DNA of 24,840 nt, taken from a virus. This document shows, one piece after another, positions 8,334 to 24,840 of this stretch; the first letter of the stretch is position 1, and every line of letters starts with the position of its first letter. Location: the UHGV virus genome UHGV-0183909. One strand, given 5' to 3'. A program made the translations under genes and the position numbers. Under the pieces are notes generated by a model, which saw nothing but the letters and a program-made list of their open reading frames with translations, was not told the DNA's origin and searched no databases.

Positions 8334-8804
8334 ATGGTAGAGCAGACCCTGAAAGAAGTAGTGAAAGCGATGTGCAAAGCATATCCCGGTGGCCGCGAGG
8401 CTATGGCTGGTGCATTGGGCATGTCAGTAACTCAGTTCAATAACAACCTGTATGAGAAAAACGGCTGTCGTTTCTTTGAGGTAACAGAGCTGGAAGCGAT
8501 GGAAGACATTTCCAACACATCGCTGGTGGCTGATTACTTTGCTAAGCGTCGTGGTGCTTTGCTGGTGGACAGGCCACTCCTGGAAGATCTGGACCGCGTT
8601 GATTTATTCAGTCGGGCAATACGTACATCTGCGGCGCGTGGGCAGGTTGACCAAATCATTGAGCAGGCTCTGGAAGATGGGGTGATCGAGCAGCATGAAG
8701 CAGAAGAAATTATGGAACATCACCGCCGCCACCTGGCAGCACGTGAGGAAGAGATTCAGGCAATCATCACTCTTTTCGGACGTAAGAAAAGCCAAAAAAA
8801 GTGA
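8334..8804 (+). CDS. CII-like regulatory protein (YdaT-like)
   Basis: Internal ATG with AAGGA RBS. Position directly after cro and similarity to YdaT-type proteins (GALGMSVTQFNN...). Confidence 0.7.
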   Translation: MVEQTLKEVVKAMCKAYPGGREAMAGALGMSVTQFNNNLYEKNGCRFFEVTELEAMEDISNTSLVADYFAKRRGALLVDRPLLEDLDRVDLFSRAIRTSAARGQVDQIIEQALEDGVIEQHEAEEIMEHHRRHLAAREEEIQAIITLFGRKKSQKK

Positions 8805-14043: not shown

Positions 14044-14055
14044 GTGGAGAACGCT

Positions 14056-14889
14056 ATGAACCTTGAAGCCCTACCAAAATTTTATTCACCAAAATCGCCA
14101 AAGTTGAGTGATGACGCGCCAGCAACCAGCAATGATGCATTGTCTGTGACTGATGTGATGGCTGCACAGGGGATGACACAGAACCGCGCATCATTTGGCT
14201 TTTCTGCGTTCCTGGGGAAGTTGGGGATCAGCATCACTGAAAAAGAAAAGGCTATCGCGCTTCTTTCTAATTATGCCCTTGCTCGCTGCGACAGAGTCCC
14301 GGCGCTTCGAAAATTGAGCGCTGAAATCAAGCCAAAAGTAATTCGCATTCTCGCTGTTTATGCATTCGAGGATTATTCTCGAAGTGCAAGCACTACACGA
14401 ATCTGTGACTGCTGTAATGGTGAAGGGTTTATTGATGCCGAAGTCTTCAGCATGAAAACCCACACACCAGGCAAGAATAAAGAATTTGTCAAAATGTCAC
14501 TGCATATGGGCGTAAAAGATATCAAGCCATCAGCATATGAGGTGCGCAGACAAGTGAGAGAAATAAACCGCGTTCTGTGCCATCAGTGCAAAGGGAAGAA
14601 AGTAGTTAGTTCCTCATGCAACGATTGCCATGGTCGCGGTAAGGCCGTAAACCGCGAATTAACTGCAAAGCAGGGAGTACCGGTATTCACCGACTGTAAA
14701 CGATGCGGTGGTAATGGCTATGCAAGAATGCCGTCAACGGAAGCACTGGAAGCAATACGCCTTGTTACTGATGCCATTTCTCTCGATACATGGAAAAAGT
14801 CTGTGAAGAAGTTCTATGACGATCTCATTGAAAAGTTCGAAGTAGAAGAGGCATGGGCTGAAGAGCAATTGCGGCGGGTAACAAAATAA
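14056..14889 (+). CDS. Late-gene antitermination protein Q (lambdoid Q family with zinc-binding Cys clusters)
   Basis: GGAGAA RBS then ATG at 14056. Cys clusters CDCCNGEG, CHQCKGKK, CNDCHGRGK, CKRCGGNG. Last gene before the tandem terminators and the lysis cassette. Confidence 0.75.
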   Translation: MNLEALPKFYSPKSPKLSDDAPATSNDALSVTDVMAAQGMTQNRASFGFSAFLGKLGISITEKEKAIALLSNYALARCDRVPALRKLSAEIKPKVIRILAVYAFEDYSRSASTTRICDCCNGEGFIDAEVFSMKTHTPGKNKEFVKMSLHMGVKDIKPSAYEVRRQVREINRVLCHQCKGKKVVSSSCNDCHGRGKAVNRELTAKQGVPVFTDCKRCGGNGYARMPSTEALEAIRLVTDAISLDTWKKSVKKFYDDLIEKFEVEEAWAEEQLRRVTK

Positions 14890-17308: not shown

Positions 17309-17562
17309 GCATTACAGCAGGCATTCACTGAGTGCCTGTGATAATGTCGAATTGTGGTAAATGCGCAGGCTGATGCGCAGCGCGTGGATGTGAAGCGAAG
17401 CAAGTCGTGCCGTTGGTTCCCTGCTAAGCGCCAACGGAATTCCGGGTTCAGCACCGGATACCACACCTAATTGAATTGTCAGTGGCTAGGGTAGCTCCTG
17501 AAAAGCGGCATCGTCACCGCCTGCCACTGATAACCTGACGAACAACTAAGACGAGGTTGTAG

Positions 17563-18100: not shown

Positions 18101-19564
18101 ATGCACATGCAGGTCACAATAGATGGTGTCCCGTATGCACCTGTCAATAATTCACACTCAGCGGTAGGGATCGCCATAACTACGCATAACAGACCTGATG
18201 TTCTTAAGCGTGCCATCGAGCAGCACATGAAGCATCTTCCGTCCGGTGCGCTGGTGGTCGTCATCGACGATGGCTCAAAGCCTCCCGCTGTTGTACCGGC
18301 TAATGTAAAACTGGTTCGTCATGACCAATCATGCGGTATTGTCGCTTCGAAGAACGCCAGCCTGACCGCACTGGTGGATGCCGGGTGTGAGCATCTCTTC
18401 CTATGGGATGATGACGCGTGGCCCATCGCCGATAACTGGCATCTTCCCTACATCGAATCTCCCGAGCCGCACCTGGCTTACCAGTTTCTCGATCTTGCTG
18501 GGCCGAGAAAGCTTAATGATATGGCCGTGCTGTACCGGGATGATAAGCACATCGCTTACACCGGACAACGCGGTGTGATGCTGTATTACCACCGCAGCGC
18601 TATTGAGAAGGTTGGCGGTTTCGATCCGGTTTATGGTCGCGGCATGTACGAGCATCCAGATCTGGCGCTACGCATTCACAATGCCGGTTTATCGACCTGG
18701 GCGTTCGCTGATGTGGTCGGATCTGAAAAACTGATTCATTCAATGGATGAGCACGAAGAGGGTACGCGCTCAATTCCACGACCTGACCGAGAGGCGCTGG
18801 TAAAAAGAAACGTTGGCATATTCAATGCTCGCCGTGACAGCGGTTATACAGGCTTTTCCTCTTATAGCAGAAATCCAAATCTGGTGATTACGACGCTACT
18901 CACAAGCCAGCCAGACCCACAGCGCGGCGGAAAGATGAAACCCGACCCGCAGGTTCTGCAATCATGGGCTGACTCAATATCCGGCGCACTACCAATTGTC
19001 TTGGCTGACGAATTGAAAGAGTCGCCAACTGGTGCTGGTTTAAGTGAAGTCCCGCTGGTGGACATGAGCCCATACTTTGCTCGCTGGCTTCACATCTATC
19101 AGTTTCTACGTGCGCACCCTGAGTATCACCTTGTCTGGTGCACTGATGGTACTGACGTTGAAATGTTGCGAGAGCCCTGGGCAGAAATGCAGTCGGGTAA
19201 AATTTACGTTGGCTCAGAGCACAAGACGTATTCCGACGAATGGATGAAAGCAAATCACCACGGCAAGGCGTATAGCGATTTCATCGAGCAACATCGCGAT
19301 GAACCACTGCTAAATGCTGGCTTGTTAGGTGGTAACCGTGAAGACGTTATGGAGTTCGCGCATCGTATCATTCGTCAGTATTACCTGATTGAAAGTCATC
19401 GCTTCTGGAAGATTGAAAGAGCGCCTGAAACGAAGGTTGATATGGGTGCATTCGGCATGGTGGCGAAGTCATTTGGAGACAAGGTTATTACCGGGCCCAA
19501 GGTTCACACCATCTTCAAGTCTGAAGGCGTTGGCAAGGAGTTGGCATGGTGGATGCACAAGTAA
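18101..19564 (+). CDS. Two-domain glycosyltransferase: N-terminal GT2 (GT-A fold), C-terminal domain of unclear family
   Basis: 487-aa ORF. GT2 hallmarks: GIAITTHNRPDVLKRAIE, VVVIDDGS, LWDDDAWP (DxD) and VGGFD. C-terminal half (LVITTLLTS..., WCTDGTDVEML) may be a second nucleotide-sugar transferase-like domain. Confidence 0.8.
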   Translation: MHMQVTIDGVPYAPVNNSHSAVGIAITTHNRPDVLKRAIEQHMKHLPSGALVVVIDDGSKPPAVVPANVKLVRHDQSCGIVASKNASLTALVDAGCEHLFLWDDDAWPIADNWHLPYIESPEPHLAYQFLDLAGPRKLNDMAVLYRDDKHIAYTGQRGVMLYYHRSAIEKVGGFDPVYGRGMYEHPDLALRIHNAGLSTWAFADVVGSEKLIHSMDEHEEGTRSIPRPDREALVKRNVGIFNARRDSGYTGFSSYSRNPNLVITTLLTSQPDPQRGGKMKPDPQVLQSWADSISGALPIVLADELKESPTGAGLSEVPLVDMSPYFARWLHIYQFLRAHPEYHLVWCTDGTDVEMLREPWAEMQSGKIYVGSEHKTYSDEWMKANHHGKAYSDFIEQHRDEPLLNAGLLGGNREDVMEFAHRIIRQYYLIESHRFWKIERAPETKVDMGAFGMVAKSFGDKVITGPKVHTIFKSEGVGKELAWWMHK

Positions 19565-20139
19565 AGTTTGTGGTTGTTGGTCACCATCTGCGCCACAAAC
19601 AAGCATTAATTCTGGCTGAGTCGATAGGTGCATTACTGCTTATCGACACGGGAGATAACGGTGCTAACTGGAATCACCGCCGCGCTCTTGAATGGGCAGA
19701 AGAGCAGTCTTGCCGAGTGGTCATTTTAGAAGACGATGCAATTCCAGTTGATGGGTTCACCAACAAACTCGTTAAGTGGATTGAGCGCTTCCCTGATGCA
19801 CTGGTTTCTTTCTATCTCGGTACTGGTCGTCCTCCACAATATCAACTCGATATAGCATCAAAGCTAATCGCAGCAGATAAGAGCAGAACTGATTACATAA
19901 CACTTTCACGTCTGATCCATGGCGTCTGCTACAGCGTACCGCATCAGCATATCAAGCGAGTTCTTGATAAATGGAACCACGGCAAAGCAGCAGATTATGC
20001 AGTAGGTGATGCTTATGGTGGCCCTGTTGTTTATCCATGCTACTCGCTCGTTGACCATGCTGACGGACAGCCGGTAGAACCAGCGCGAGACAACCAGCCA
20101 CGTACAGAACGCCGAAGAGCATGGAGGTTACATGTCTAA
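19546..20139 (+). CDS. Putative GT25-like glycosyltransferase (LPS/LOS glycosyltransferase-like)
   Basis: AAGGAG RBS; start overlaps the 3' end of the GT2 gene. GANWNHRRALEWAEEQSCRVVILEDDAIPVDGF resembles the GT25 signature (G..GC..SH..W...ILEDD), as I recall it. Confidence 0.6.
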   Translation: MVDAQVKFVVVGHHLRHKQALILAESIGALLLIDTGDNGANWNHRRALEWAEEQSCRVVILEDDAIPVDGFTNKLVKWIERFPDALVSFYLGTGRPPQYQLDIASKLIAADKSRTDYITLSRLIHGVCYSVPHQHIKRVLDKWNHGKAADYAVGDAYGGPVVYPCYSLVDHADGQPVEPARDNQPRTERRRAWRLHV

Positions 20140-20500
20140 ACTAAAGACACTACAGCCACGCCTTAAAGCTATCGACACGCGGCGCATCAAACCTATCTAT
20201 GGTGAGCATCGTCGAGTCAGTGGCAGTGCCAGGGTAAGCCTGAAGCGACGTATCTATGTTCGCGACGGTGGTCATTGCTGCATGTGCAAGCGAGTAGTAG
20301 ACCTGCATGACAGTGAGCTTGACCACCGCATTGCTCTACAGTTCGGCGGTGACAACGATGAGCGCAACCTTTGGACGCTGTGCATCGAGTGTCATTCAGG
20401 TAAGTCATCGCGAGAAGCATCAATGAACCAGCCTGATGGTGAGGCTCTGAAGCACTCTGTGCCGAAAGATAAATCACAATCTGGCATCGTAATTCTCTGA
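20132..20500 (+). CDS. HNH endonuclease (packaging-associated, upstream of small terminase)
   Basis: GGAGG RBS. HNH signature GGHCCMCKRVVDLHDSELDHRIALQFGGDNDERNLWTLCIECHSGK (two Cys pairs, His-Asn-His spacing). Confidence 0.85.
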   Translation: MSKLKTLQPRLKAIDTRRIKPIYGEHRRVSGSARVSLKRRIYVRDGGHCCMCKRVVDLHDSELDHRIALQFGGDNDERNLWTLCIECHSGKSSREASMNQPDGEALKHSVPKDKSQSGIVIL

Positions 20501-20600
20501 CCAAACACCGGGGGGGTATCAGTGGGTGTCAACGCCGATCGCGCTGGACACCGCGCCCCCTCTCACGCGTAGAAAAAATTCCCTTTTGGAGGGTGTTAAC

Positions 20601-21083
20601 GTGTTAACAGGACAGAAGCGCAAGTTCGCACAGGCGCGGATGTCCGGTTCATCCCAGGCTGAAGCAGCCCGTAAGGCCGGTTACTCCGAGAAAACCGCAA
20701 GGTCTCAGGGTTCACGGCTGGCAAAAGACCCGGATATCATCGCTTACATTGAAAAAAATGGAGCAGGTGATAAGCCTTCAAAATTTGTTGGGCTGCCAAT
20801 TCCTCCATCAGCGAAGGTGGGAAAAGATCTACCCATGGAGGTAGAGCCAGTACCGACCCTGAACAAATATGAAGATCCTCTTGAATTCCTGAAATCTGTC
20901 ATGAATGACCCAACTCTTGAACTTGATGACAGAAAAGACGCAGCGAAGGCGATGCTTCCATACATTCATCAGAAAAAAGGTGAGGGTGGGAAAAAGGAAG
21001 CGAAAGGCGCAGCCGCAAAAAATGCAGCCAATAAGTTTGCCGTTCCTGCACCGCCGAAACTTGTTGTAAACAACCGGGGGTGA
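20601..21083 (+). CDS. Terminase small subunit (P27-like)
   Basis: GTG start after GGAGGG. LTGQKRKFAQARMSGSSQAEAARKAGYSEKTARSQGSRLAKDPDIIAYI matches the conserved N-terminal HTH region of P27-family small terminases. The longer GTG-initiated ORF from 20526 is possible. Confidence 0.75.
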   Translation: MLTGQKRKFAQARMSGSSQAEAARKAGYSEKTARSQGSRLAKDPDIIAYIEKNGAGDKPSKFVGLPIPPSAKVGKDLPMEVEPVPTLNKYEDPLEFLKSVMNDPTLELDDRKDAAKAMLPYIHQKKGEGGKKEAKGAAAKNAANKFAVPAPPKLVVNNRG

Positions 21084-21086
21084 TTA

Positions 21087-22745
21087 ATGCCAGAATGGAC
21101 TACAGCATGCCCTGACTGGAGTGAACGACTTAAGCGCGGTGATTCGATAATTCCACCACCGATTTATCCTGAACAGGCAGAGATAGCGCTTAATATTTTC
21201 AAGCAACTGAAAATAGTTGATGCGCCAGGCTCTCCAACGTTTGGTGAGTCGTGTGCCAATTGGGTGTTTGATCTGGTTGCGGCGCTTTTCGGTTCGTACG
21301 ATGCCGAAACAGGAAGGCGGCATATCACGGAAGTTTTCGTACTAATACCGAAAAAAAACAGTAAATCTACACTTGCTGCCGGAATTATGATGACGGCACT
21401 GCTTCTCAACTGGCGACAAGCTGCCGGCTACACAATTATTGCCCCAACTGTAGAAGTAGCAACGAACGCATTTAACCCCGCTCGCGATATGGTTAAGCGT
21501 GATGATGACCTTGATGATCTTTGCCAGGTACAAACCCATATTAGGACCATTACTCACCTGGTGAGCGATACCACGCTGAAGGTTGTTGCAGCAGATGCAA
21601 ACACTGTTTCTGGGATTAAATCAGTAGGAACGCTGATTGATGAACTTTGGCTATTCGGAAAGCAGGCAAATGCGGAGGATTTACTTCGTGAAGCGATAGG
21701 TGGTTTGGCATCTCGTCCTGAAGGATTCGTGATGTACACTACTACGCAATCAAACGAACCTCCAGCCGGTGTTTTTAAACAAAAACTTCAGTACGCTCGC
21801 GACGTTAGAGACGGGAAAATTATTGATCCAAACTTTCTTCCCGTTATTTTCGAACACCCGCCAGAAATGGTTGCCAACGGCGATCACCTTCTTCTTGAAA
21901 ATATGCCGATGGTTAACCCTAACTTGGGGTATTCGGTCGATGAGCAGTTTCTTAATCGTGAGTTTAGGAAAGCCAAAGAAGCAGGAGAAGAAGCATTTCG
22001 TGGATTCATGGCAAAGCACGCGAACATAGAGATTGGTTTGGCGTTACGTGCTGACCGATGGGCAGGTGCTGATTTCTGGGAGCAACAAGCAGAAAGGGTA
22101 AGTTTTGAAGAAATTATTCAACGCAGCGAGGTCATCACGGTTGGTATTGATGGTGGTGGTCTTGATGACCTACTTGGACTGTCAATAACCGGCAGAGATA
22201 AAGACACGCGAAAATGGATATCCTGGAGCCATGCTTGGGCCCACGAAATTATGCTTGAACGCCGTAAAAGCGAGATATCGAAACTGCGTGATTTTGAAAA
22301 GGCCGGAGACTTCACCATTGTGAAGCGAGTTGGTCAGGACACAGAGCAAGTTGCAGAGTACGTCAGCAGAATTTATGAAGCTGATTTGCTGGATAAGATT
22401 GGTATTGACCCGGCAGGCGTTGGGCAAATTCTGGATGCACTGGTTGAGGCAGGAATCCCTCCTGAACTGGTAGTCGGTATCAGTCAGGGCTGGCGACTTG
22501 GCGGCGCGATAATGACTACCGAGCGAAAACTTGCTGAAGGCGTCCTGATCCACGGCGGTCAGCCGATGATGGCCTGGTGCGTTGGTAACGCAAGGGTAGA
22601 ACCTAAGGGTAACGCCATCCTGATTACCAAGCAGGCCAGTGGGAAGGGGAAAATTGACCCCCTTATGGCGCTATTTAATGCCGTCTCGTTAATGGCACTG
22701 AATCCAGAGGCGAAGAAACAAGATTACCAGGTATTTTTCATATAA
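21087..22745 (+). CDS. Terminase large subunit (ATPase plus nuclease)
   Basis: 552-aa ORF. Walker A-like region VFVLIPKKNSKSTLAAGIMMTALLL; C-terminal nuclease-like region VGIDGGGLDDLLGLSITG. Confidence 0.9.
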   Translation: MPEWTTACPDWSERLKRGDSIIPPPIYPEQAEIALNIFKQLKIVDAPGSPTFGESCANWVFDLVAALFGSYDAETGRRHITEVFVLIPKKNSKSTLAAGIMMTALLLNWRQAAGYTIIAPTVEVATNAFNPARDMVKRDDDLDDLCQVQTHIRTITHLVSDTTLKVVAADANTVSGIKSVGTLIDELWLFGKQANAEDLLREAIGGLASRPEGFVMYTTTQSNEPPAGVFKQKLQYARDVRDGKIIDPNFLPVIFEHPPEMVANGDHLLLENMPMVNPNLGYSVDEQFLNREFRKAKEAGEEAFRGFMAKHANIEIGLALRADRWAGADFWEQQAERVSFEEIIQRSEVITVGIDGGGLDDLLGLSITGRDKDTRKWISWSHAWAHEIMLERRKSEISKLRDFEKAGDFTIVKRVGQDTEQVAEYVSRIYEADLLDKIGIDPAGVGQILDALVEAGIPPELVVGISQGWRLGGAIMTTERKLAEGVLIHGGQPMMAWCVGNARVEPKGNAILITKQASGKGKIDPLMALFNAVSLMALNPEAKKQDYQVFFI

Positions 22746-22764
22746 CACACACGTCAGTTAATGA

Positions 22765-22784
22765 CCCGCTACGGCGGGTTTTTT
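22765..22784 (+). terminator. Hairpin plus U-run between the large terminase and the capsid ORF (terminator or attenuator)
   Basis: CCCGC-TACG-GCGGG followed by TTTTTT, then GGAGGA RBS and ATG at 22804. Confidence 0.5.
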
Positions 22785-22803
22785 CGTTTCTGGAGGACAG
22801 AAA

Positions 22804-24741
22804 ATGAAGCTTGACCGCGCATGTACCATCATGACGGTGAAAGCGGTGGATGAGGATAAACGGATTATCACCGGCATTGCCTCCACACCATCACCAGACC
22901 GTGACGGCGACATTATGGAGCCTGACGGCGCGAAGTTTGGCAGTGAAAACCCGTTTTTATGGCAGCACGACAGGTCTCAGCCCATCGGTAATTGCTCGGC
23001 GAAAAAGGTGAAAGAGGGGCTGCAAATTACAGCTCAACTTGTTAAGCCAACACCTGATATGCCATCGCAGCTGGTGGCCAGACTTGAAGAAGCGTGGGCA
23101 TCAATTAAGTCAGGACTTGTAAAAGGTCTGTCGATTGGTTTTAAGCCCATCAAATACGCTTATCTCGACTCTGGCGGCATTCAATTCCTCGAATGGGAGT
23201 TACTAGAAGTCTCTGCCGTAACCATTCCCGCTAATTCTGAGTGTTCAATTCAGACAGTTAAATCTTTTGACCGCCAGTTACTCGCCGCGCTTGGCAATGA
23301 GAAACGCGTGGTTAAAGCAAATCAATCCGCTGGCGCTACAGCACAAAAACAAACTTCTCAAAAAGGAAAACCAACGATGAATATCGCTGAACAGATCAAA
23401 AGTTTTGAAAACAAGCGTGCAGCGCTGGCCGCTTTACTGAATGACATCATGAGCAAAGCTGCTGATGAAGGTCGCACTCTGGATGTAGAAGAAACTGAAA
23501 GCTACGACAACACCTCTACGGAAATCAAATCGGTAGACGAACACCTGAAACGCCTTCGTGACATGGAAGCCAGCATGGCATCAACCGCGAAGCCGGTGAC
23601 CAAAACTGCAAACGGTGAAGTTACTGTGATTAATAACGGGCCGTCCATCATTCGCGTAGAGCCGAAACTGGAAAAAGGTATCGCTTTTGCCCGTTTCGCA
23701 AAGTCACTGGCCGCTGGTAACGGTAGCCGATCTGAAGCCCTGCAGATTGCGAAAAACCAGTATCCTGATGACACTAAACTTCATCATGTCCTGAAAGCGG
23801 CGGTTAGTGCCGGTACTACTACAGACCCGACCTGGGCTGGCGCACTGGTAGAATACCAGGATTACGCACAGGACTTCGTTGAATTCCTGCGTCCGCAGAC
23901 CATTATTGGTCGCTTTGGTCAGGGTAATATCCCTTCTCTTCGTCAGGTTCCATTCAACGTTCGTATTCCAGCGCAAACCTCAGGCGGTTCAGCAAGCTGG
24001 GTAGGTCAGGGTAAAGCAAAACCTCTGACTAAATTTGACTTTGCCACCATCACCTTCGGTTTCTCCAAAGTGGCATCTATCGCAGTGTTGACCGAAGAAC
24101 TGATCCGCTTCTCTAACCCATCTGCTGATGCTCTGGTGCGAAATGCACTGGCAGAAGCGGTGATCGCGCGACTGGATACAGACTTCATTGACCCTGCTAA
24201 AGCGGCGGTCGCTGATGTTTCTCCGGCATCTATCACCAATGGCATCACTGCTATTCCTTCTACCGGTGATCCTGATACTGATGCTTCTGCAGCATTTGGT
24301 CAGTTCATTACGAACAACCTGCAGCCGAATGGTGCGGTATGGCTGATGTCCAGCACTACGGCACTTACTCTGTCTATGCGTAAAAACGCGCTTGGTCAGA
24401 AAGAATACCCGGATATGACCATGCTGGGCGGTACGTTCCAGGGCTTGCCGGTGATCGTTTCACAGTACGTTGGCAACCAATTGGTACTGGTTAACGCACC
24501 AGATGTTTATCTGGCAGATGATGGTGGCGTCGCCGTTGATATGTCTCGCGAAGCTTCTCTGGAAATGCAGAGCGCTCCGACCCACGACAGCACAACGCCA
24601 ACTCCAGTTGAATTGGTTTCGATGTTCCAGACTAACAGCGTGGCAATTCGTGCTGAGCGCTGGATTAACTGGAAACGCCGCCGTGATGCAGCCGTAGCTG
24701 TTATTTCTGACGTTGATTACAGCACTGGTTCAACCAGCTAA
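22804..24741 (+). CDS. Fused prohead protease / scaffold-like linker / HK97-fold major capsid protein
   Basis: 645-aa ORF. N-terminal third carries HK97-type prohead protease motifs (IITGIASTPSPDRDGDIMEPDGAKF, NPFLWQHDRSQPIG). Middle is a charged coiled-coil-like linker. C-terminal ~400 aa resembles HK97-fold capsid proteins. In-frame internal ATG at 23377 has an AAAAGGA RBS. Confidence 0.8.
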   Translation: MKLDRACTIMTVKAVDEDKRIITGIASTPSPDRDGDIMEPDGAKFGSENPFLWQHDRSQPIGNCSAKKVKEGLQITAQLVKPTPDMPSQLVARLEEAWASIKSGLVKGLSIGFKPIKYAYLDSGGIQFLEWELLEVSAVTIPANSECSIQTVKSFDRQLLAALGNEKRVVKANQSAGATAQKQTSQKGKPTMNIAEQIKSFENKRAALAALLNDIMSKAADEGRTLDVEETESYDNTSTEIKSVDEHLKRLRDMEASMASTAKPVTKTANGEVTVINNGPSIIRVEPKLEKGIAFARFAKSLAAGNGSRSEALQIAKNQYPDDTKLHHVLKAAVSAGTTTDPTWAGALVEYQDYAQDFVEFLRPQTIIGRFGQGNIPSLRQVPFNVRIPAQTSGGSASWVGQGKAKPLTKFDFATITFGFSKVASIAVLTEELIRFSNPSADALVRNALAEAVIARLDTDFIDPAKAAVADVSPASITNGITAIPSTGDPDTDASAAFGQFITNNLQPNGAVWLMSSTTALTLSMRKNALGQKEYPDMTMLGGTFQGLPVIVSQYVGNQLVLVNAPDVYLADDGGVAVDMSREASLEMQSAPTHDSTTPTPVELVSMFQTNSVAIRAERWINWKRRRDAAVAVISDVDYSTGSTS

Positions 24742-24840
24742 GAAGGAGGGCGGGGGAAACCCCCATAAGCGCTAACTTAAGGGTTGTGGTATTACGCCTG
24801 ATATGATTTAACGTGCCGATGAATTACTCTCACGATAACT

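Follow-up and report, generated by a model that had tools for sequence, protein, structure and literature searches.

Here, we analyzed UHGV virus genome UHGV-0183909, a 24,840-nt stretch of DNA (hereafter, the window), in which a 645-amino acid open reading frame (ORF) downstream of the large terminase gene (TerL) joins an HK97-type S78 prohead protease to an HK97-family major capsid protein through a delta (scaffolding) domain. Comparison of this fusion gene with its relatives suggests that Met192, which is the first residue of the delta domain, is probably a working translation start, by which two nested products, protease-delta-capsid and delta-capsid, would be made across a family that counts several thousand prophage copies, including those of Shiga toxin (Stx) phages. 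That two nested products are possible had been proposed in a sequence-only reading of the window, and the proposal gains support from the comparison, as the internal start codon and its Shine-Dalgarno (SD)-like motif are kept in every fused relative and 16 relatives with split genes have a capsid start that is homologous to Met192.

The domain composition of the fusion ORF was confirmed by profile searches, in agreement with the sequence-only reading, which had described a protease fused to a capsid fold by a charged linker. In a Pfam scan, Peptidase_S78 (PF04586) was matched at aa 49-153 with 43.1 bits (cut-off, 21) and Phage_capsid (PF05065) at aa 385-634 with 54.1 bits (cut-off, 24.2), and the two domains are joined by a charged delta/scaffold segment. 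TIGR01554 (major_cap_HK97) was also matched with 76.1 bits (cut-off, 27.5), positions 3-355 of the model being aligned to aa 203-584, which indicates that the capsid homology, including the delta/scaffold part, starts about 10 residues past Met192. The stricter equivalog TIGR01543 stayed under its threshold in the protease part (aa 49-154; 51.5 bits versus a cut-off of 59). The whole protein was matched end to end by phrog_617 (aa 1-639 to profile positions 7-626 of 626; E 3e-223). Furthermore, His55 in a WQH motif and Ser110 in a GLSIGF motif, the two motifs which we take to hold the S78 catalytic pair, were invariant in all 106 fused relatives compared, which fits an active protease as judged from the alignment; these residues are presumably the counterparts of His65 and Ser114 of HK97 gp4. 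The nearest solved capsid protein by sequence was PDB 9d9w (E 1.4e-5), and a search of solved structures with the protease part returned chance hits alone (E of at least 0.098), so that the assignment of the catalytic residues rests on the family motifs and their invariance. The conservation profile, which was computed over 23 representatives (sequences below 90% identity), was lowest at about aa 171-190 and had a second minimum at aa 271-285, which is thus a likely zone of maturation cleavage at the C-terminal end of the delta domain. The boundary of this domain is a putative one, placed by its likeness to the delta domain of HK97 gp5 (PMC10275583). Taken together, the ORF is very probably a regular member of the BP-4795/PAJU2-type HK97 head module of PHROG 617.

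The internal start is an in-frame ATG at codon 192, with AAGGA located 9 nt upstream. The sequence-only reading had called this context a strong ribosome-binding site; both the ATG and the AAGGA are present, but the word "strong" overstated the case, as the predicted pairing with the anti-SD sequence is -5.6 kcal/mol, which ranks 2nd among the 30 in-frame internal NTG codons of the fusion gene. A start codon was kept at this site in all 108 intact fused relatives (107 ATG and one TTG, at locus L026), at the first residue of the delta domain and with an SD-like motif a few nucleotides upstream. The motif is AAGGA in the enteric sequences, where it is encoded by Lys-Gly, and GAGGAGGG or AAGGAGGG in those from Pseudomonas and alpha-proteobacteria, where it is encoded by Glu-Glu-Gly or Lys-Glu-Gly, and the linker residues around the motif and the start are otherwise hypervariable. 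Among the 23 representatives, the internal site was the strongest SD column inside the gene, with a mean pairing of -7.1 kcal/mol and 96% of the values at or below -5 kcal/mol; the mean at the 5' start column of the fusion gene family was about -9.6 kcal/mol. In addition, the region from -20 to +20 around the internal start was among the least structured and most AT-rich parts of the gene (median percentile 91; at or above the 75th percentile in 19 of 23).

Split-gene relatives gave a further line of evidence. In 16 more distant relatives, from sphingomonads, Brucella daejeonensis, Psychrobacter, Acinetobacter, Snodgrassella and one metagenome-assembled genome (MAG), the protease and the capsid protein have a gene each, and that of the capsid protein begins with the codon homologous to Met192. 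The protease ORF of these relatives ends in the region of the fused linker (aa 166-191), its stop codon being placed -4 to +54 nt from the homologous capsid start (ATG or GTG) in 15 of the 16, and in four of them the two genes overlap as ATGA or GTGA. On a rough neighbor-joining tree of the capsid part, the fused and split states were interleaved, which indicates that the boundary has flipped more than once. The sixteenth split relative (L037) carries a 1.3-kb insertion between the two genes (at about 4723-6012), which presumably resembles a TnpB gene of the IS200/IS605 type; the capsid protein of this locus should thus be expressed independently of the protease ORF. This locus is the MAG, which is labelled Prevotella, and its portal protein is 52% identical to that of PAJU2, the label appearing doubtful for a module of proteobacterial type. 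At another locus (L019, Pseudorhodoferax sp. Leaf274), the nominally fused ORF reads, at about 6570-6615, through an intergenic-like stretch, in which a terminator-like hairpin, cccgcctctggcgggttttttt, stands ahead of AAAGGGG and the capsid ATG, and the portal gene lies about 3.9 kb downstream versus about 0.2 kb elsewhere.

These features could be accounted for by the following mechanism. The capsid protein of HK97 begins with its delta scaffold domain, which extends into the procapsid (PMC10275583). The 69-kDa full-length product of the fusion gene would carry the S78 protease on the N-terminus of such a domain, and, with the delta domain pointing inward, the protease would reach the procapsid interior without having to be targeted there separately. 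Once the procapsid is assembled, it would cut away both itself and the delta domain and leave a mature capsid protein of about 38.5-40 kDa, the N-terminus of which is predicted to fall within aa 270-290. Such self-removal matches the autocatalytic polyprotein model proposed for PAJU2. Ribosomes probably also initiate at the internal SD and ATG (Met192), which would yield a 48.7-kDa delta-capsid protein without the protease and bring the number of proteases per procapsid below one per capsid subunit. The split relatives would reach an equal outcome by two cistrons, and the fused and split versions would differ merely by a stop codon just upstream of the internal start. We infer the autoproteolysis, the use of the internal start and the stoichiometry of the products from the gene layout and its conservation. 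If the mechanism is true, the amount of protease in each procapsid would depend on the rate of initiation at the 5' start (a GTG in the BP-4795 clade) relative to that at the internal one; a fused gene and a split pair would be equivalent in function, one stop codon apart, which would explain the repeated switching on the tree. The family may be regarded as a natural series of fused and split protease-capsid genes with one conserved capsid start, which could be used to probe the protease copy number per procapsid.

Several observations weigh against a working start at Met192 and have to be set beside an alternative in which the 69-kDa fusion is the sole product, each capsid subunit bringing its own protease, which is then removed autocatalytically, and the internal ATG and SD are unused, being either inherited from an earlier gene boundary or simply a consequence of the amino acid sequence of the linker and delta domain. 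This alternative has a precedent, as gp03 of PAJU2 is curated as "Capsid polyprotein" and its autocatalytic cleavage, which needs no internal start, has been proposed, as far as the proposal is relayed in a later article (PMC8306868). In the searchable literature, neither an experiment on internal initiation nor a statement of family-wide nested products was found, the original PAJU2 paper being known to us second-hand. The enteric internal SD is moderate, ranking 2nd to 8th among 26-34 in-frame NTG codons, and in the window and the other enteric sequences it is weaker than the 5' SD (AAGGA against GGAGG in the window). When the seven codons before Met192 were shuffled synonymously, the median p value was 0.19 and none of the 23 representatives fell below 0.05; the combined p value of 0.009 ignores the relatedness between the sequences. 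The shuffle thus indicates that the encoded Lys/Glu-Gly residues largely yield the SD strength, and selection on codon choice is not claimed. Another conserved methionine, Met580, also stands in an SD-like context, which is made by the conserved DDGG motif of the protein; thus, conservation of an SD-like sequence alone is not decisive. The argument from local structure is weakened in that linkers rich in Lys and Asn are AT-rich by virtue of their amino acid content.

The sole-product alternative is harder to reconcile with the comparison as a whole. It would have to explain why a start codon is present in every fused gene across lineages of about 50% identity next to a hypervariable linker, why the lone exception is TTG, itself a start codon, and why the SD-like motif has been rebuilt from different codons (KG, EEG and KEG) at a fixed distance. 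Moreover, the site corresponds by homology to the actual start of the capsid gene in the 16 split relatives, and the repeated switching of state is most easily explained if capsid translation is independent of the fusion. The alternative thus deserves to be kept in view as a possible but somewhat doubtful one, and we lean toward Met192 as a working start.

The spacer between TerL and the fusion gene was also examined. The sequence-only reading had reported a gap of 58 bp with a hairpin and U-run, and both were found again: the spacer (22746-22803) is 58 nt long, and a hairpin scan located a stem-loop at 22763-22780 and then TTTTCGTTTC, the hairpin being 23 nt ahead of the start codon of the fusion gene. 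By a per-sequence scan for a hairpin plus T-run with shuffled controls, an equivalent element was detected in 56 of 66 unique TerL-protease spacers of the relatives, versus 2% of the shuffled spacers, at 18-25 nt upstream of the protease start. The stems vary by lineage (CCCGC/GCGGG, ACCGC/GCGGT, GCCCCG/CGGGGC and GCGACCT/AGGTCGC), with different sequences among the enterics, the BP-4795 clade, Pseudomonas, Acinetobacter and Snodgrassella. In the same scan, the hairpin was absent in the alpha-proteobacterial members, whose gaps between the two genes are very short. RNAalifold on a MAFFT alignment of 14 spacers predicted no pairs, the hairpins being out of register. The hairpin between terL and the head gene is thus structurally conserved across the gamma- and beta-proteobacterial members, which is a point for specialists in phage assembly. 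Because a Q-like antiterminator is encoded, late transcription is expected to read through it; the hairpin may serve in the lysogen to block transcription that has not been antiterminated, or it may affect how stable the RNA is.

With respect to gene order, the sequence-only reading had noted that no portal gene stands between TerL and the capsid gene, and indeed the two ORFs fill the interval and leave no room for one. Its view of this order as a departure from the canonical HK97 scheme was not sustained, since TerL-capsid-portal is the normal order of PHROG 617-type modules. A comparison of head gene order in related prophages, which it had suggested, gave HNH, TerS (the small terminase subunit), TerL, the protease-delta-capsid gene, a small ORF and then the portal gene as the order of the family; the upstream half (HNH-TerS-TerL-fusion) is present in the window and the downstream half would lie beyond an insertion sequence (IS) and the window end. 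Its expectation of a portal gene downstream was likewise supported by the relatives. From 130 loci fetched, 122 extended for at least 1.6 kb past the capsid stop codon, and a portal homolog was found 3' of the capsid gene in 120 of these, within 700 nt in 118 and at a median of 205 nt after the stop codon. An annotated portal gene follows the fusion gene after a small ORF in two E. coli prophages, Salmonella phage FSL SP-016, the Stx1 phage BP-4795 and PAJU2, and the downstream portals of these annotated relatives belong to PF04860 (E 1e-65 to 1e-81). Directly 3' of the portal gene, there is a conserved ORF of 330-460 aa (L004 9511-10896, which is BP-4795 ORF59; L005 6054-7058, which is PAJU2 gp07; and L002 15815-18398), which existing annotation either calls a second "portal protein" or joins to the portal gene as a "frameshifted" pseudogene; it had no convincing match to a Pfam or NCBIfam family.

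The portal gene is out of view in the window because IS421/IS186, which the sequence-only reading had overlooked, sits just after the capsid gene and runs off the window edge. At the GC-rich hairpin after the capsid stop codon, close relatives read ...ggcgggggaaaccccgcc-atttcatATG, where the small ORF begins and the portal gene follows, and the window agrees with its closest relatives only to "...ggcgggggaaaccccc" (diverging after ...aaaccccc), at which the terminal inverted repeat of the IS begins. The IS thus starts about 23 nt past the capsid stop codon, and the window ends inside it. The last 94 nt were found with 100% identity in IS421 copies of E. coli genomes, at 8,503 places in all, and the start of the annotated IS421 transposase falls 72 nt into the matched sequence. 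In the closest relatives (94-96% identity), 38-200 nt separate the counterpart of this interrupted hairpin from the starts of the small ORF and the portal gene, and the small-ORF sequence expected 3' of the IS is gccatttcatATG.... An insertion at the same locus was considered for the best E. coli matches to the last 94 nt and was rejected, as the copy in strain 203740 lies in the ibs/mdtA region. IS421/IS186 prefers GC-rich targets, and the flank common with the E. coli copies, which comes from another locus, is attributed to this preference. The portal gene, if still present, must be located beyond the approximately 1.3-kb IS that interrupts the late operon, and the prophage may be defective because the IS separates the capsid gene from the remaining late operon. 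As a lesson for annotation, calls of a "missing portal" in PHROG 617-type modules should be checked downstream of the capsid gene.

Two further explanations call the module itself into question. One is that it is a genuinely portal-less or satellite capsid module (encapsulin-like, gene transfer agent-like or like a capsid-forming phage-inducible chromosomal island), with its portal lacking or borrowed, in favor of which the window shows no portal gene, either between the terminase and capsid genes or after them. It is very improbable and was rejected, given the PF04860 portal homologs after the capsid gene in nearly all the relatives, the small ORF and portal gene that the closest relatives keep just past the interrupted hairpin, and the genes for integrase, repressor, replication, Q and lysis, which make the window a complete left arm of a lambdoid prophage. 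The other is that the fusion is an artefact or pseudogene, arising from a sequencing or assembly frameshift or a lost stop codon in one defective prophage; it could appeal to the split-gene relatives and to the IS in the late operon, which may be a sign of a decaying prophage. The sequence-only reading had allowed that relatives might expose such an artefact; on the contrary, the ORF is intact (644-667 aa) in 106 loci with an ATG 5' start and, in addition, in the GTG-start BP-4795 clade, including cultured phages, and the catalytic His and Ser are invariant. With more than 100 independent intact loci and 90% identity clusters of 436 members for the window protein and 9,916 for the BP-4795 protein, this explanation is refuted and its probability is practically negligible.

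The fusion and the terminase-capsid-portal order are already known, having been annotated since the genomes of the O157 prophage, BP-4795 and PAJU2, which the sequence-only reading had missed. The exact window protein is public as DAZ40043.1 and is named in IMG as an HK97 capsid protein/prohead protease, so that its discovery value is little. ORF56 of BP-4795 is named "putative major head protein/prohead protease," with similar annotation in many Stx phages, and gp03 of PAJU2 is the Swiss-Prot entry "Capsid polyprotein" (CAPSD_BPPAJ), which has also been annotated as "prohead protease fused capsid protein." For PAJU2, Uchiyama et al, 2009, proposed the fusion and its autocatalytic cleavage, as relayed by PMC8306868. 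The hosts of the fused ORF belong to Enterobacterales, Pseudomonas, Rhizobiales, Rhodobacterales and Burkholderiales, and the loci come from isolates, MAGs, viral contigs and the cultured phages FSL SP-016, BP-4795 and PAJU2. The fused ORF was also found in about 100 deposited phage genomes, mainly of Stx1a, Stx2a and Stx2c converting phages. In the BP-4795/Stx-phage clade, GTG opens the protease-capsid ORF (L002 13666 and L004 6001) and the internal capsid start stays ATG. What may be mildly new is that the comparison lends support to a nested start kept across the family and to a toggling of the genes, in evolution, between the fused and split states.

PHROG, Pfam and RNA scans indicated that the window consists of the left and middle parts of a lambdoid prophage, and the nearest relatives of its capsid gene (94-96% protein identity) are in Citrobacter and other enterobacterial prophages. 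The PHROG and Pfam scans identified genes for an integrase, a CI-like repressor, an O-like replication protein, a DNA methyltransferase and RusA, the Q-like antiterminator gene at 14044-14889, and a lysis set of two holins, an endolysin and a spanin. The late region continues with two glycosyltransferases, HNH, TerS, TerL and the fusion gene. The glycosyltransferase genes (18101-19564 and 19546-20139) correspond to phrog_1579 and phrog_854 of the moron category and are positioned between the lysis genes and HNH/TerS inside the late region, an arrangement that is likewise seen in an E. coli locus (L001) and in Salmonella phage FSL SP-016. A tRNA-Ser(cga) at 1047-1136 adjoins the integrase gene and is likely the attachment site, and a phage-borne tRNA-Arg(tct) lies at 6868-6943. 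The Rfam int-alpA RNA motif was matched at 17479-17541, upstream of a DUF551 gene, with 41.8 bits (gathering score, 35.8). The features of the packaging and head region are collected in the table.

Table. Features of the packaging and head region of the window, in order of position.
Feature	Positions	Strand	Basis
HNH endonuclease gene, head of packaging module	20132..20500	+	PF01844 E 4.5e-7; phrog_589 E 7.8e-34; equal position in relatives
Small terminase subunit (TerS)	20526..21083	+	PF03592 Terminase_2; phrog_641 E 6e-52
Large terminase subunit (TerL), 552 aa, ATPase and nuclease domains	21087..22745	+	PF03354, PF20441; phrog_9 E 3e-139
Terminator-like hairpin GACCCGC/TACG/GCGGGTT with T-run	22763..22790	+	Hairpin scan
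SD GGAGG of the full-length ORF	22792..22796	+	Read from sequence
Protease-delta-capsid polyprotein ORF, 645 aa, 69.4 kDa	22804..24741	+	Six-frame ORF list; Pfam; phrog_617
S78 (HK97-type) prohead protease domain, aa 1 to ~165	22804..23298	+	PF04586
C-terminal tail of the protease plus Lys/Thr/Gln-rich, hypervariable linker, aa 166-191	23299..23376	+	Conservation profile
Internal SD-like AAGGA (23363-23367) and in-frame ATG (23377-23379, Met192)	23363..23379	+	Sequence; comparison
Putative delta (scaffolding) domain, aa 192 to ~270-284	23377..23655	+	TIGR01554; conservation; analogy
HK97-family major capsid protein body, ~aa 285-645	23656..24738	+	PF05065, TIGR01554
GC-rich hairpin ggcgggggaaacccc after capsid stop; IS target site, 3' arm interrupted	24746..24763	+	Comparison with close relatives
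IS4-family IS421/IS186 left end; transposase ATG 24819, runs off window	24764..24840	+	Matches to IS421 copies

Among known systems, PAJU2 offers a close parallel. Its gp03 is the same kind of three-part ORF (S78 protease, delta domain and HK97-family capsid), with 50% identity over 99% of the length, and the phage has the order TerS-TerL-fusion-small ORFs-portal, a hairpin in the spacer from terL to the fusion gene, and, where the delta domain starts, an ATG preceded by an internal SD (GGAGGG). PAJU2 differs in that it is a cultured phage of another host order with a proposed polyprotein cleavage model, its gp03 is 22 aa longer, its sequence is GC-rich, and its internal SD is predicted to pair at -10.8 kcal/mol versus -5.6 kcal/mol in the window. 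BP-4795 ORF56 and its homologues in E. coli O157 lambdoid and Stx1/Stx2c prophages also have 645 aa, with 72-73% identity, which for BP-4795 is 73% over at least 99% of the length, and lie in a module of HNH-TerS-TerL-fusion-small ORF-portal-second portal-associated ORF, in which Met192 and an upstream purine-rich motif are conserved; the differences are the GTG start of the long ORF and the internal upstream motif, which is AAGGAAAAG, encoded by KEK versus KGK in the window.

In HK97, the protease and the capsid protein are encoded by separate genes, in the order TerL-portal-protease-capsid. HK97 gp4 and gp5 resemble the two parts of the window protein in having a PF04586/TIGR01543-like protease and a PF05065/TIGR01554 capsid protein with an N-terminal scaffold domain, the scaffold being in both cases a domain of the capsid protein (PMC10275583). 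The similarity is at the family level only, and the window differs in having one ORF, with the portal gene placed after the capsid gene in its relatives. The domain architecture is also shared with the "major capsid and protease fusion protein" of actinobacteriophages, with the "prohead protease/major capsid protein fusion protein" of NF045541 and with PHROG 4523, protease-capsid fusion being a standing annotation category in actinobacteriophages and NCBIfam. Membership in NF045541 (scaf_prot_MCP2) was rejected for the window protein (42.2 bits versus a cut-off of 525, over aa 49-249 only), and PHROG 4523, which was matched with an E of 1e-8, is a separate family; these fusions look like they are independent of that of PHROG 617.

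The internal start also bears a likeness to the nested C/Nu3 genes of lambda (and I/Z of Mu), in which an internal in-frame start in the protease ORF gives a shorter, C-terminally identical assembly protein. In lambda, both products have been demonstrated and the nesting sets the ratio of protease to scaffold. The analogy drawn in the sequence-only reading is fair as to mechanism, given the nested in-frame start with its RBS-like (ribosome-binding-site-like) motif, and does not extend to descent: the Pfam search of the fusion ORF gave S78 and Phage_capsid only, versus the S49-type protease of lambda. Furthermore, the nested lambda product is a free scaffold, whereas that of the window, as predicted from its gene layout, would be scaffold and capsid in one protein.

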